Source: a virus. From it: a stretch of 32,928 nucleotides of DNA. Below are positions 75-6,155 of the stretch, in pieces. Below the pieces are notes generated by a model. The model searched no databases, was not told where the DNA came from, and saw only the letters and a list, made by a program, of their open reading frames with translations. The translations under genes were made by a program, and so were the position numbers. Location of the stretch: UHGV virus genome UHGV-0143082; one strand, given 5' to 3'. The stretch's first letter is position 1. Each line of letters begins with the position of its first letter.

Positions 75-3023
75 TTAGTGCTTCCCTTCTATTAAGTCTA
101 ACCTAGCTTTTATTCTTTCTATTTCTCTGCGCTGCCATGCCGCCTCGATATAGAATAAGAGATCAGGTCTGACCCCCCATCTAGATCCTGCTGGCGTTAT
201 TTCAACGCGCTCAATGATGTCTTCCATTACCATCACTGGATTATCATCCTCATCAACAATGATGCTCCCGTCATTATCAGTCAGCGGTATTTCCCTTTGG
301 CCAGTAATGACGTCATCATATACTGCGGGATAATCGTCATAGCAAAGAAAGGCATAGCGGCATGTTGTGCTTTCTTCTTCCATGAGTCCGTGAGAAATAA
401 GAACATCACGAAGTTGCTGCGCGATTACACCATGATGTATCCTCGCCCCTTCTTCCCCCTTTATAGCGACAGCGTTCAGCCATTTATAAGCGATATACCT
501 GACGTCACCCCAGGCATCCAGCAATGCTTCGTCAGGAGAGACCGCCTCTGTCTTTAATGTTCCGTCACTGGTAACCACAGGATTGGAGCCAAGATAAACT
601 GTCGAGAACCTGTTTCCCGGACCACCAAGAGCATTTACATTATCAAGATAAGGTTTAACATCTCCGTTCTCAAAAAGATGTTCGAGTGCGTTATATACCG
701 CGCGACGTGGAGTACTGCTTCCGGAACCATGCAACGTTATCATTGCGCCATCTGCTGAAGACGTTGTTTCACCGCCGCTAACGATTAATCTCTGAGCGGT
801 AACATCATCAGACGGTACTTTCTTCGCAATAATGGCGTAATTACCCTCAAGTTTGACTTCCGCGCGAACTTGTCCTGATGTACCTGCATGGACAGTCAGT
901 GACTGGACGGCAACATCATCTGTGAAATCAACGGGTACAGGAACCGTCCTCACGCCTGACGTCGACATAAAAGTAGGAAGCGTTCTGTTAGGAGTGGCTC
1001 CGTAGACAAAATCCCTTGAAACAAATTCTTCCTGTTTAATTTTCACCCTGAAACAATACAAATCAGCCGGGTGACCATCGTGAACATAAGGATATTTTCT
1101 GTTGTTATCCCCTATGCTCCATGGGTTTAGAAAGTCTTCCCCACCGAAAATGTAGTACAGCCAGTTGTCTTTGATACAAACTGAACCAACACCAACCGCA
1201 GAGTTAACTATTCCGCCCTGATAAATCTGATCAGTAACATTAACCCACTCTACATTATCCAGACTCCACTCATTGACGTTAACTCTGGTCATAAATGTTC
1301 TTGGATAATTTCCTGCATAACGGTTATCAGGTTCTCCTCCTTCCCACTCACCAAATGCGCGCTCACTGCCAAAAATAATCAGCTCATCGCCAACTTTGGC
1401 AAAAGGAAGGTTTGAGTGATGAACATTATTTGGGAAGCGAAGAGAATTCCATGATGTACCTAAATCAGAGCTTCTGTGCAATGAACTACCGGGTTGAGTA
1501 CTTAATGTCCCCCTGGTCGTCAGATACAGAATGCCATCATAATATTTTACACATGGCTCAGATGCATTCGCCTCATATTCTGCAGGTATGCGTCTGCGAA
1601 CAAAGCTACCAGGAGAACCGAAAGCATCAGAGAAATAGAGTATCCCAAGCTCGCGTGGACCAATATCACCATTATGGTAGCCAACAGCAAAACTGTTATC
1701 GCTAATCGTCGCAAAACTGTGAATCTCAGTAACAGGAGTGCTTCCGTCAACAAAAGAAGAAATAGTTCCAAGACTGGTTTTTCTCCATGGTGACGAGTGA
1801 AATGATGTACCAAAACTCCAGTATCTACCCTCGTTATTCTGATCCACATCCTGAGTATTTTGCGTCGTAACTGTAAAAGTATTTTTATCAATAACAGTAG
1901 TCACCGTCATATTCCCGGTAACACCTGTAACACCAGAGTTTGAGAAGTTGACAAAATCACCAGCAAATAATCCGTGATCAGTAATGCGAATATAAGCGAC
2001 TTGCTGATTTGCTGCTTTCGTTATACCACCATAAACGCGAAGGCTGCGACTCATTGGACGATCCCACAACTCTGCAACCTGCAGTTTATTTCCGCGCACG
2101 GTCCGCGTCTCAATTACAGCAAAAAGGCGATTTCTGACAACCCCCATACTCATGCAGTGATAGTTAACTGTGGGATAGTTTTCATGTAAATCTGTAAGCC
2201 ATTCCGGCGTTGTCCAGGTCTTCCCGTCATCTCCTGAGCGAACCCATGCAACATGGAGGTTATTTACACCATGGCGGTCTCCAGCCATAAAAGGCGCATA
2301 GATGACATTGTCATATACAAACGTTTTATCCTGCGTCCAGGCGTTGTACCACGGTGTATCTGTAATTTTAAATAACTCTCCTTGGATAAAATCTTCAGAA
2401 GCATAAAAAAGAGGCTGACCCGGTATTCTCTCAAATAAAAAACGAGCATTTTTAAATCGACTGACATCTGGAAGAGTTGATACTTTAAAAGTAAGCCCTC
2501 GCCCATCTATCTTTTCACCACCTGTTGCAACAGAAAGTAATTCTGATAGAGCTGATGTATCATCATGAACACCATCACCAATAGCCCCCCAACCTCTTAC
2601 ATCATAACTGTCTCTCCATCTTGCTATCTGAAGTTTTGGGTATTTATTCGCTCCATCTGGGTCTTCTAATTGCTGTCGTAACTGATCAGGATCATACTTC
2701 AGCACATTCGGAAAATAGAACTGCTGCACACCGTACGCATCATAAACAGCCATAGAATGGCCCTGTACAGTAACGAATTTGGCAATCTGTCCGTTATATA
2801 CCGGATATCCAGCAGCGTTAATGATGATTGGTTGCGATACAGGAACGTGAGAGCCGTCTTCGTTCTCCACATAAACCTGAATCTGGTTTTCAGGATTTAC
2901 AGGGTCAGTGTCAATTTTACCGATATAAATTTTACCATTGGCTACGGCTTTAAAAGAACGAGCCATAGTGAAGAGTTGCGAAGGCATACTCACTACAACA
3001 TTGGCATTTATTGAATCTGTCAT
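75..3023 (-). CDS. Tailspike protein: P22 gp9-like head-binding N-terminal domain fused to endosialidase-like body with C-terminal intramolecular chaperone domain
   Basis: 982 aa; N-terminal ~115 aa closely resemble P22 tailspike ([45 protein letters not shown]); two Asp-box motifs SGDDGKTW and SSDLGTSW; C-terminal region resembles the self-cleaving chaperone of endosialidases. Confidence 0.8.
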
Positions 3024-3123: not shown

Positions 3124-4059
3124 TCAGTAGTTATGTACTGAAGGAGGTAATTCTTTATTCTTAAGTCTCATCCATGCGGAAAGATTCGTTGGTCCGTCTG
3201 GCTCATTAATATCAACATCTCGTGTGTGGTTTATTAAAACGTCTCTCGCCATTCCGATAACATACGAGAACTCATGACCGTAGTCGTAGCATCTGCCGGA
3301 ATAGTTCGATTGAATTTGTTTTAATGCCGGATACAGTTCGCGGAATAATGCCTGTGAACGGTTGGCATAATCCCATAGCCATACAAGGCTGTTTGCTTCT
3401 TTTGCAGAAAGCTCGTTGACTTTCCTCTCTTGTTTGCCGATGAACTCTCCTTCAAGCGGAACGCGAGCTGCAAGTGACAGTGCTTCGGTAAACTGCTCCT
3501 CACTAATTTCTTTGTACGAACATCCAAAATGGGATTTCAGTGACGACCACATGGTGATCATCGCCTTAGCCTGTTTTTCTTTTGGCAGAGACTGACCGCG
3601 ACTCATGACGAGTTGTTTAATGGCTTCCTGCTGTTCAGTGGTGATTTTACCCTGCAACGCCTTTTTAGCTTTGCGTGGGTTAACTACATGGCCTTTAGTC
3701 CAGTAGTCATGCAGCACGCTAAAGCATTCCTCCTGGTACTGAATCAGTTTATCACGGATGTCAGCACGAACTTTCTCAGGGTTGATGCTGAACAGCCATC
3801 CATTTAACTTCTTCAAAGGAAGGCAGAGTAGCTTACGAAGCTTCCCATCAGCGGCAACCATGTTCATATGAACACAGTTGAATTTGCTAATCTGCTTCAT
3901 GAGTTTTGTTTGCTGCGTTGACCAGCTCATTCCAAGGTTTTCAACGATTGGCTTCATCGCAACATATGCAACTCCGGCAGCCATGGCGGTGATAATTTGC
4001 TGACCGTTGAATGGTACGTAAGAGGTGTTCACTGCTTCTAAAATTGCTATACTATTCAT
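3124..4059 (-). CDS. ant: Antirepressor Ant
   Basis: N-terminus [21 protein letters not shown] resembles P22 Ant; sits between arc and tailspike as in P22 immI. ORF-track start at 4089 is a TTG; the ATG at 4059 with upstream GGAGA is preferred. Confidence 0.75.
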
Positions 4060-4130
4060 GTTGGTTTTTCTCCAAGGATTTACCGACAACCGAAGCCCTG
4101 ACTGTTACCGCAGTTGGGGCTTCAACTTTT
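4060..4130 (+). ncRNA. Candidate sar-like antisense RNA covering the ant ribosome-binding site
   Basis: Extended -10 TGcTATACT at 4045-4053 on +; predicted start about 4060; hairpin 4092-4123 (gaagccc/gggcttc) followed by U-rich tract; arrangement mirrors P22 sar. Confidence 0.3.
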
Positions 4131-4346
4131 CACTTCTTTAAAGTGCCTACCTTCTACAGTTGCTCTGAGATAAAAATTCTTATCTTTACCGTTTAGTGCT
4201 TCCCAAGCATCAACAATGCACTTATTACAGATGTGGACTTCTCGATAACCAATAGCTTTCCTGTCAATATTAGTGAACATAACAGCTTCTTTATCTGTCA
4301 ATGTGGATGCATGACAGAAGTCGCAATCTATATAAGATACCTTCAT
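4122..4346 (-). CDS. Small zinc-ribbon-like protein of unknown function (two CxxC pairs)
   Basis: 74 aa; CDFC and CNKC motifs; ATG overlaps the arc stop (ATGA), suggesting translational coupling; not present between arc and ant in P22 as I recall. Confidence 0.5.
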   Translation of the reverse strand: MKVSYIDCDFCHASTLTDKEAVMFTNIDRKAIGYREVHICNKCIVDAWEALNGKDKNFYLRATVEGRHFKEVKS

Positions 4347-4501
4347 ACCGTTATCCCCTCTCTCTTCAGGCTGTCCAACACTCGCTTGTAAATCTCAGAG
4401 TTAACAGATCGCCCGTTCTCTTCAGCTACCTTGCGCACCAAATCCAATACTTCTTTAGGCCACCGCAAATTGAACTGAGGCATTTTTCTTGCACCTTGCA
4501 T
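4343..4501 (-). CDS. arc: Arc repressor (ribbon-helix-helix)
   Basis: Hand translation gives MQGARKMPQFNLRWPKEVLDLVRKVAEENGRSVNSEIYKRVLDSLKREGITV, near-identical in core to P22 Arc; below the 60-aa cutoff so absent from the ORF track; an upstream in-frame ATG at 4522 is an alternative start. Confidence 0.8.
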   Translation of the reverse strand: MQGARKMPQFNLRWPKEVLDLVRKVAEENGRSVNSEIYKRVLDSLKREGITV

Positions 4502-4522
4502 ATTCAACTCCATTTCACTCAT

Positions 4523-4594
4523 TGATAGTACCGTACTACTATTGAAAGCGTACTACTACCGTTCTAGCATGTCAACAAATAAAAGGAGAACGAC
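4523..4594. promoter_or_regulatory. Divergent Pant/Pmnt promoter-operator region
   Basis: Pmnt candidate TTGAAA(4542-4547)-17-TAGCAT(4565-4570) on +; perfect TTGACA on minus at 4570-4575; palindrome TAGTAccgTACTA at 4526-4538 and direct repeats of CGTACTACTA at 4532-4541 and 4550-4559. Confidence 0.6.
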
Positions 4595-4837
4595 GTGGCT
4601 AGAAATGATCCACAATTCAACGTAAGAATGCCTGATGAGATAAAACAGCAACTTACGCATATTGCTGCAACAAATCGCCGCTCGATAAACGCAGAGATTA
4701 TTTCAGCTATCGAACTATGGATAAAAATTCATAAAGGGCAGCTAATACCTTCAAGTAGTCGAATCCTGACAAAGTCTGAGCAAGAGGCGTTTGATGTAGC
4801 TATTGATGTGTTAAAACGTGTAAGAGATGGAGGATAA
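4595..4837 (+). CDS. mnt: Mnt repressor (Arc/MetJ ribbon-helix-helix family)
   Basis: 80 aa; MARNDPQFNVRMP resembles P22 Mnt N-terminus (MARDDPHFNFRMP); GTG start preceded by AAGGAGA; divergent from arc as in P22. Confidence 0.75.
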   Translation: MARNDPQFNVRMPDEIKQQLTHIAATNRRSINAEIISAIELWIKIHKGQLIPSSSRILTKSEQEAFDVAIDVLKRVRDGG

Positions 4838-4839
4838 CC

Positions 4840-5073
4840 ATGGAGCAACAACAAGGGTCGCCATTATCATTGATTATTATGGTGATTTTTTTCGTTTTTA
4901 TCTTTTTTATACCTGCGTTAAAAATATCCAAAAAGGCCGGTTTTGACTGGAAGATGGCTGTATGTTTAACAATCCCTGGCTTTAACGTGGTGGCGTGGCT
5001 CGCGCTTGCGTTCATGGATTGGCCAATTCACAAGTATCTACCAAAAGATGTGAATCGTAAGGATGCAAAATGA
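4840..5073 (+). CDS. Small hydrophobic membrane protein, unknown function
   Basis: 77 aa with two predicted TM segments; start 2 nt after the mnt stop; stop overlaps next ATG. Confidence 0.5.
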   Translation: MEQQQGSPLSLIIMVIFFVFIFFIPALKISKKAGFDWKMAVCLTIPGFNVVAWLALAFMDWPIHKYLPKDVNRKDAK

Positions 5074-5279
5074 ATAAAAAACAGCTTATTAAGTCAAAAA
5101 CGTCAAGCAAGGAAGAATTAGAGAAGGAGCTAAACTCCCTGAAATATGCTCTGTGTCTGGTTTACTCAAGACTGCCAATGGAAGATAAAAACGCCATTTA
5201 CAATGAAATGATTAGCAGCCTTGATTTTAACGATAGAGACCTAGCATCCCACCTCAACAGCTTCCGCGTCCCTGAGTAA
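5070..5279 (+). CDS. Hypothetical protein
   Basis: 69 aa; ATGA overlap with upstream ORF; AAGGA upstream; followed by the bidirectional terminator. Confidence 0.4.
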   Translation: MNKKQLIKSKTSSKEELEKELNSLKYALCLVYSRLPMEDKNAIYNEMISSLDFNDRDLASHLNSFRVPE

Positions 5280-5439
5280 TTCTGTTGCGGATTTGCTTCT
5301 TGCGGTGGTTTAAGCTGGAGAGCTTGGCTTCTGCTTCTGATATTTGCGCATCTAGATCTTTAAGCTCAAGATCTGAAAGTCGCTGGTCAAGCAGGGTTTG
5401 ATTCAACTCAATGTTGTTCAGGCGTTCTTCTATGGTCAT
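5254..5439 (-). CDS. Hypothetical coiled-coil protein
   Basis: 61 aa; strong SD AAGGAGA 5 nt before ATG; heptad-like leucine spacing; 3' end overlaps convergent ORF 5070-5279. Confidence 0.35.
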   Translation of the reverse strand: MTIEERLNNIELNQTLLDQRLSDLELKDLDAQISEAEAKLSSLNHRKKQIRNRITQGRGSC

Positions 5440-5451
5440 GATTTCTCCTTA

Positions 5452-5483
5452 TAAAAAACCCACCTGACGGTGGGTTAATTTTT
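5452..5483. terminator. Bidirectional rho-independent terminator
   Basis: aacccacc-tgac-ggtgggtt stem-loop flanked by an A-run upstream and a T-run downstream on +. Confidence 0.55.
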
Positions 5484-5566
5484 GCATTTACCTGGGCCAT
5501 ATTGACTACTTATAAAATGAGATCAATATTTAATCGCCCAATAACGGGTGTATGTTGAGGTATATC

Positions 5567-5746
5567 ATGGCGAAAAAACCAGGTGAAAACACAGGAAAAA
5601 ACGGCGGAATATACCAAGAAGTTGGCCCACGCGGCGGTAAGAAAGACAATTTTGCCACCGTCAAGGACAACGAAAGGCTTCCGCCAACAACAAAGCCAGG
5701 TCATGGCTGGGTATTGGATAAGCGAACTCCAGACAGCAAAAAGTAA
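5567..5746 (+). CDS. YjzC-like small protein (recalled family resemblance, uncertain)
   Basis: KKPGENTGKNGGIYQEVGPRGG...PGHGWV pattern; GAGG 6 nt upstream of ATG 5567; ORF-track start 5552 is an in-frame alternative. Confidence 0.45.
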   Translation: MAKKPGENTGKNGGIYQEVGPRGGKKDNFATVKDNERLPPTTKPGHGWVLDKRTPDSKK

Positions 5747-5751
5747 TAATC

Positions 5752-5775
5752 AAGCCGGTTCACTCCGGCTTTTTG
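5752..5775 (+). terminator. Rho-independent terminator after the YjzC-like gene
   Basis: aagccgg-ttcact-ccggctt stem followed by TTTT; overlaps the stop codon of the convergent gene. Confidence 0.5.
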
Positions 5776-6125
5776 ATATGTCGCTCGCAGAACTCAACAA
5801 GCCTGCTCATTAAGTAGCAGTAAGTCTCGTTGGCTCTTCCTGGTTCAACATCAACACCTACCCTTGAGCAGATATCGAATGCCATGTGAGCGCACTCATG
5901 GGCAATAGTAGATAGTTTGCCATTGAACACGCCTATCACATGCAAAACACCATTCTCGCTACTCATTGTATGAGACGCTCCGTTGGCGTCCGAGTCATGC
6001 ACGTCAACGCCAAGTTTTTGATGCAGGCGTTGCCATTCTGGAAAGTCTCTACAAAACACAATTGTACCGCTCTCAAAGAGCGGAACGAGCATCTTTGGTA
6101 CGTTTCCAATGTTAACTTTTTTCAT
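5760..6125 (-). CDS. Putative zinc metallopeptidase-like protein (HExxH motif), unknown function
   Basis: Motif IAHECAHMAF; ORF-track start 6137 is GTG, the ATG at 6125 (MKKVNIG) with AGGA upstream is preferred; located where P22 carries sieA. Confidence 0.5.
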   Translation of the reverse strand: MKKVNIGNVPKMLVPLFESGTIVFCRDFPEWQRLHQKLGVDVHDSDANGASHTMSSENGVLHVIGVFNGKLSTIAHECAHMAFDICSRVGVDVEPGRANETYCYLMSRLVEFCERHIKKPE

Positions 6126-6155
6126 GGTATCCTGCACAAAACTAAGGAGGTTGGT

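Follow-up and report, generated by a model that had tools for sequence, protein, structure and literature searches.

Does the translation start of the antirepressor gene ant in the virus genome UHGV-0143082 carry a small antisense RNA on the opposite strand, as a first-pass annotation had predicted from the letters alone, and, if so, is this RNA a relative of P22 sar or a chance resemblance? We addressed the question in a stretch of 32,928 nucleotides of this genome, analysed at its full length and referred to below as the window. The interval 4025-4130 on the + strand is very probably the sar gene of a P22-like (Lederbergvirus) prophage, consisting of the promoter Psar and a 68-69-nt cis-antisense RNA, with production of the RNA and repression of Ant extrapolated from P22. 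To judge by its sequence, the element is the already known, canonical P22-type sar and its identity holds nothing new, because it lies three bases from P22 across promoter and RNA, and P22 sar itself scores 97.8 bits with the Rfam model for sar, as against 97.4 bits for the element in the window. The practical value of this assignment is a correction of annotation: the RefSeq annotation of the prophage has no RNA feature at the sar position, leaving a textbook antisense regulator unannotated. Only the slot between arc and sar, and a set of sar lineages that Rfam leaves unreported at its gathering score, go beyond the textbook.

The sar element and its immI setting

The putative target of the RNA, ant (3124..4059, - strand), encodes a 311-aa antirepressor with Pfam matches to P22_AR_N (1.5e-45) and P22_AR_C (9.2e-29) and a match to the PHROG anti-repressor Ant (1.9e-97), and the same CDS is annotated in RefSeq. 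Its ATG lies at 4059..4057 (-), the complement of 4057-4059 (+), and its Shine-Dalgarno sequence GGAGA at 4073..4069 (-), 9 nt from the ATG. Further upstream on the same strand is arc, the gene for the Arc repressor (4343..4501, -; Pfam Arc, 2.6e-26), given here in the 52-aa reading of RefSeq, with a mechanical ORF that reaches 4522. Divergent from arc is an mnt-like gene for an Arc-family repressor (4595..4837, +), identified from a Pfam Arc match (1.8e-12) and from alignment with P22. The order ant, arc, mnt-like, as given by the Pfam and PHROG matches, is that of the P22 immI region.

Alignment with P22 also places the Pant/Pmnt control region, which serves both strands, at ~4523-4594, with TTGACA on the - strand at 4575..4570; a promoter-like site at 4542-4570 (+) was called there by the generic promoter scan. 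The Pant -35 TTGACA is kept in this region, which has otherwise diverged from P22, and a direct repeat, TAGTAGTACG, occurs twice on the - strand (4533-4542 and 4548-4557). The N-terminal DNA-binding strand of Arc is the same as in P22 despite the divergence of 4523-4594, and Arc operator specificity may differ from that of P22.

The wider surroundings are those of an Escherichia coli prophage. Over 651 bp (3950-4600) the window matches three chromosomes of chicken E. coli with 100% identity. The tailspike gene (75-3023, -; 982 aa) combines a P22 head-binding domain with complete endosialidase domains and an S74 chaperone domain, and by these domains its product is predicted to be CUS-3-like and specific for the K1 capsule, while the prophage that carries it has a full P22-type immI region, arc included; according to the epsilon34 paper (PMC2629481), CUS-3 is without arc. 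Between mnt and the gene for the DNA-transfer protein (4840-6137) lie small ORFs of 77 aa (hydrophobic, possibly a membrane protein), 69, 61 and 125 aa, for which Pfam returned no match; the interval corresponds to the variable accessory region of 'ant moron' genes.

Searching the whole window against Rfam gave a single match, to RF00262 (sar) at 4060-4127 (+), which covers model positions 1-68 of 68 with 97.4 bits (E 5.3e-20; gathering score 43). We accordingly place the sar RNA at 4060..4128 (+), with a length of 68-69 nt; coordinates homologous to the epsilon34 annotation would put it at 4061-4128 (+). The likeness to P22 sar proposed in the first-pass annotation is upheld by this full-length match, by near-identity with the P22 immI record (X01916) and with epsilon34, and by the immI neighbours. 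The start that this annotation had set near 4060 coincides with the first base of the match; its further description of this base as the complement of the ant start codon has to be amended, in that 4060 adjoins the ATG, whose complement is 4057-4059. The proposed cover of the ant Shine-Dalgarno sequence holds, the complement TCTCC lying at 4069-4073 and thus inside 4060-4128.

The promoter was compared in an alignment of the window with X01916, Salmonella phage epsilon34 (EU570103) and Escherichia phage vB_EcoP-611R6. The predicted extended -10 of Psar, TGcTATACT (TGCTATACT), is present on the + strand exactly where it had been reported (4045..4053). It is embedded in ant codons 3-5 (Ser-Ile-Ala: AGT ATA GCA), so that Psar sits inside the first codons of ant and is convergent with Pant, the place that it occupies in P22 and epsilon34, and the -10 together with its TG motif is identical in P22, epsilon34 and 611R6. 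The -35, GTGTTC (4025..4030, +), assigned from homology with the Psar feature of epsilon34 and from the alignment, is weak and lies 17 bp upstream of the -10; the P22 version is GTGTTA. Psar went uncalled in the generic promoter scan and the sar terminator in the generic terminator scan; we discount both misses as negative evidence because the proven elements of P22 itself are equally weak.

The -10 alone is unremarkable. The 9-mer TGNTATACT was found once in the window, against 0.58 expected, and at least once in 42 of 100 shuffles, and this expectation is what speaks for a chance coincidence of a promoter-like 9-mer and a hairpin beside ant. The probability of such a coincidence is negligible, and the idea is already refuted by the Rfam E value of 5e-20 and by near-identity to P22 over ~100 nt. 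Because the 9-mer says so little by itself, the significance of the sar assignment is carried by the match of the whole element. Sequence-level tests found the RF00262 score, the cover of the Shine-Dalgarno sequence, the two hairpins, the position of Psar and the immI context together at this locus.

In silico, the 69-nt sar RNA folds as two hairpins at -32.4 kcal/mol (z -5.9; 0 of 200 shuffles as good), and the minimum-free-energy and centroid folds are both the Rfam consensus structure. Hairpin I (4060..4087, +), with the stem GUUGGU/ACCGAC in the fold, holds the anti-Shine-Dalgarno sequence UCUCC (4069-4073) in its loop. Hairpin II, the putative sar terminator (4092..4123, +), was identified from both the Rfam match and the fold; it pairs 4092-4105 with 4110-4123 in a 14-bp stem that includes three G.U pairs and is closed by the loop UACC. 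A GC hairpin of 7 bp had been predicted here: the location was right, but those 7 bp are the outer half of the 14 pairs. Directly 3' of the hairpin follows AACUUUUCACUUCUUU, and the terminator tail reads AACUUUUCAC (4124..4133, +). The U-rich tract expected after the hairpin is there, but it is weak, with a U run of UUUU only (4127-4130). The tail is at the same time the complement of the final codons and stop (Lys-Ser-TGA) of a 74-aa ORF on the other strand. A reading of the hairpin as a terminator for transcription in the ant direction was considered and dropped, because the - strand continues with GGUUGUCGG rather than with a U tract.

Relative to X01916, Psar and sar differ at three positions: 4030, 4084 and 4130. 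Position 4030, the final base of the weak -35, is C, as in epsilon34 and 611R6, where P22 has A. Position 4084 is C in place of U and converts a G.U pair of hairpin I to G-C; as the sole difference within the RNA it leaves 67 of 68 bases identical to P22 sar, and the same C occurs in three loci of the comparison set described below (L016, L018 and L019). Position 4130, in the 3' tail, is T where P22 has A; the P22 tail reads AACUUUACGC, with a run of UUU, and the U run in the window is thus the longer of the two.

Conservation among Ant-encoding loci

The comparison set consisted of 80 IMG/VR loci encoding relatives of Ant with 75-99% identity. The motif TGCTA[T/A/C]ACT is kept in ant codons 3-5 in 80/80 loci, at a fixed distance to hairpin I, and the wobble bases that form TGnTAnnnT (AGT, [A/T/G]TA, GCA) are invariant across lineages while neighbouring codons diverge. 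Lineages other than the P22 type have a good -35, TTGATA, at 17 bp; the weak variant GTGTTC recurs in epsilon34, 611R6 and many IMG/VR loci. In every lineage the first base of hairpin I stands 7 nt after the -10, that is, at the predicted +1, and the anti-Shine-Dalgarno sequence lies within loop I and is followed by a GC-rich hairpin.

Pairs of stem I were counted upwards from the foot in the individual fold of each sequence, a MAFFT alignment of the divergent sar lineages having been set aside for this count because it lost the structural register. The five basal pairs are all kept among 14 distinct sequences, with two-sided changes at pairs 1, 4 and 5. The terminator keeps its shape and place across lineages but is built from at least four or five unrelated sequences, and compensatory changes were found in both stems.

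Hairpins of this kind could in principle act on the minus strand, as leader structure of the ant mRNA with a part in, for example, its stability or its translational coupling to the ORF upstream, and with no plus-strand RNA being made. The complement of sar on the ant strand does form hairpins too (-20.7 kcal/mol, z -2.2), and the ant mRNA target of P22 is known as structured (Schaefer and McClure 1997, as cited in PMC2629481). However, the fold of the sar strand is 4-12 kcal/mol more stable than that of the ant strand in 11/11 lineages, because G.U pairs in the former become A.C mismatches in the latter, and this strand bias therefore argues against a structure that is purely on the mRNA side. 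With an extended -10 conserved at the right distance on the + strand, and with the P22 sar RNA experimentally established, we regard a role confined to the mRNA leader as very unlikely. The retention of the -10, the hairpins and the anti-Shine-Dalgarno sequence while the sequences themselves diverge points to selection on the element as a plus-strand RNA.

Of these lineages, only those with the P22-type terminator are reported by Rfam at its gathering score. Sar-like genes with the same layout and different terminator sequences are present in loci L025, L051, L059, L067 and L013 (~2430-2500, - strand), for which RF00262 gave no report at that score. Because these same-layout lineages are missed, the sar family would seem to be broader than the curated model detects; RF00262 could be broadened to take them in, and sar-type RNAs with other terminators would, if genuine, enlarge the family.

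A terminator-pattern scan of the genome collection, with one genome per species, returned a single locus, in Pectobacterium. There, in P. brasiliense CFBP8736 (L089, 5860-5950), a hairpin identical to the P22 sar terminator stands upstream of an unrelated 223-aa putative antirepressor-like gene; this locus has no adjacent arc, a different hairpin I, and a -10, TACACT, without the TG motif. It would appear that the terminator hairpin spreads as a mosaic module and is not confined to Salmonella and E. coli.

Reading frames at the arc-sar junction

Homology with P22 ends at the 3' end of sar (~4131) and resumes inside arc (~4350). The intervening DNA holds a 74-aa ORF with a CxxC...CxxC pattern (4122..4346, -), located between arc and sar/ant, whose start overlaps the arc stop codon (ATGA) and whose own stop, TGA (4124..4122), lies within the 3' arm of the sar terminator. 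Because the P22 arc stop TAA is AAA here, the ORF runs two codons on to this TGA. An antisense overlap of sar with the 3' end of the inserted ORF had been predicted; the overlap is real, but it extends over only ~7 nt (4122-4128), the stop and about 1.3 codons.

The 74-aa ORF has only seven homologue clusters, all of them hypothetical proteins of enterobacteria, and its homologues are always placed in the order arc, ORF, 63 nt, ant. Substitutions relative to an 82%-identical copy are distributed over the three codon positions as 13/6/20, a pattern that fits a coding sequence, and the cysteines are conserved in the full-length members of the family. The sole Pfam match, to zf-C4_ClpX (PF06689), was limited to residues 36-51 (18.9 bits, E 0.0015), and a ClpX-type C4 zinc finger was not supported, the score falling below the gathering cut-off of 27; the 'zinc ribbon' label of the first-pass annotation derives only from the conserved CxxC...CxxC pattern. 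The AlphaFold model of the product is of low confidence (pLDDT 50.6), and PHROGs and PADLOC returned no match.

We measured the spacing between the arc stop and the ant ATG in 83 sequences, namely the 80 IMG/VR loci, the window, phage 611R6 and P22. The compact P22 form, with 63-69 nt, accounts for 43 of the 83. A distance of 98 nt in eight others looks like the deletion remnant of a 57-aa cassette, in which ~25 nt of the 3' end of the ORF are kept. The long form (233-329 nt) occurs in 22/83, the window and 611R6 among them, and for the remaining ten no arc was found upstream of ant. Each long form holds one ORF, and these ORFs belong to at least six mutually unrelated families (57, 67, 73, 74, 80 and 89 aa). 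Despite this diversity of content the borders are constant: in every family the ORF overlaps the arc stop codon by 4 nt, and all share one stop codon, the TGA within the 3' terminator arm of sar, 63-64 nt from ant. Their final codons, of the form x-Lys/Glu-Ser/Arg/Gln, specify the sar U run. Across genera, the arrangement with a cassette is retained together with an intact sar.

Such ORFs were located at 4122-4346 (-) in the window, at ~2170-2440 in L011, L016, L020, L021, L027, L064 and others, and at 1673-1894 in L003. The 67-aa ORF of L011 (MSKECCFCG...LCSDCVLDII), for which Pfam gave no match, also has a CxxC...CxxC pattern and is unrelated to the ORF of the window; the motifs of both resemble the N-terminal zinc-binding domain of ClpX. 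Pfam searches with the other cassettes gave sub-threshold hints only, to FlbD and DUF948, and PADLOC had no match for the other five cassette ORFs.

From these common borders we tentatively suggest that the sar terminator, beyond ending the RNA, may mark the constant 3' limit of a slot between arc and ant in which genes are exchanged, a possibility that we rate as rather doubtful. Speculatively, and provided that the slot has a function, sar would pair with a polycistronic arc-cassette-ant mRNA and thereby uncouple the cassette from ant in expression, with cleavage of the duplex possibly following; the protein of the cassette could in that case be produced along with Arc, and Ant kept off. Small accessory ORFs are inserted at the arc-sar junction recurrently, and these ORFs are candidates for lysogenic-conversion or exclusion functions.

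Proposed repression of Ant and comparison with known systems

From the genetics and biochemistry of P22 we infer that the sar RNA would be made in this prophage and that Ant would be repressed by it. RNA polymerase would start at 4060/4061 from the extended -10 promoter within the first ant codons, cross the ant leader and stop at the hairpin 4092-4123 with its short U run. The ant mRNA contains a perfect complement of the resulting RNA, beginning just before the ATG and reaching back to 69 nt upstream of it. Hairpin I would display the complement of the ant Shine-Dalgarno sequence in its loop, and pairing of sar with ant would hide the ribosome-binding site and block translation of Ant. This block would extend to ant on read-through transcripts from upstream (late-operon) promoters, which are beyond the control of Arc and Mnt, and in the prophage the stop codon of the 74-aa ORF would likewise lie within the duplex.

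A sar gene retained by descent might nonetheless be silent or non-functional here, if the weaker -35 or the inserted ORF limited the RNA. This would be in keeping with the one -35 base that differs from P22 and with the generic scan, which made no promoter call; yet the same -35 variant is carried by epsilon34, 611R6 and many IMG/VR loci, and extended -10 promoters do not depend on a -35. Within the RNA, the one base that differs from P22 makes a pair stronger, the U run exceeds that of P22 in length, and the cassette arrangement retains an intact sar across genera. Loss of function is therefore improbable in our estimation, if somewhat less so than a role confined to the mRNA leader, and an active sar that represses Ant as in P22 is the reading we prefer.

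P22 offers the closest model for this RNA. P22 sar, 68-69 nt long and transcribed from Psar, pairs with the ribosome-binding site of ant and represses Ant, including that from read-through late transcripts; its characterization is reportedly owed to Liao et al. (1987), Wu et al. (1987) and Schaefer and McClure (1997). It is presented as an antisense repressor of Ant in PMC2629481 and PMC12111858, and small-RNA sequencing of P22 found it among the abundant small RNAs (PMC13397905). The element in the window has the same antisense position on the ant leader and Shine-Dalgarno sequence, the same -10 and the same spacing to the ant ATG, and it shares with P22 the two hairpins, the length and the immI neighbours mnt, arc and ant. 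The two differ in that the arc stop abuts the 3' end of sar in P22, whereas in the window the 74-aa ORF lies between them with its stop inside the terminator arm, and in that the host of P22 is Salmonella, whereas that of the prophage, with its K1-type endosialidase tailspike, is E. coli.

The same element, with differences in loop bases, is found in the other two named phages. Epsilon34 has Psar and sar annotated at homologous coordinates. In 611R6, where the element is unannotated, arc and sar are likewise separated by an additional ORF (73 aa, phrog_11805), unrelated to the 74-aa ORF of the window.

Among other antisense RNAs, c4 of phages P1 and P7 (said to have been described by Citron and Schuster in 1990) reportedly blocks antirepressor synthesis by occluding a ribosome-binding site in immI, like sar. 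We know of no sequence relationship between the two, and, unlike sar, c4 is processed from the transcript of its own target and pairs with short sites, having neither a convergent promoter nor full complementarity. OOP of lambda and P22 and RNA-OUT of IS10, for which we likewise know of no homology with sar, resemble it as short, structured, convergent RNAs over one end (5' or 3') of a target mRNA, but they act on other targets and with other outcomes, which for OOP is cleavage by RNase III.
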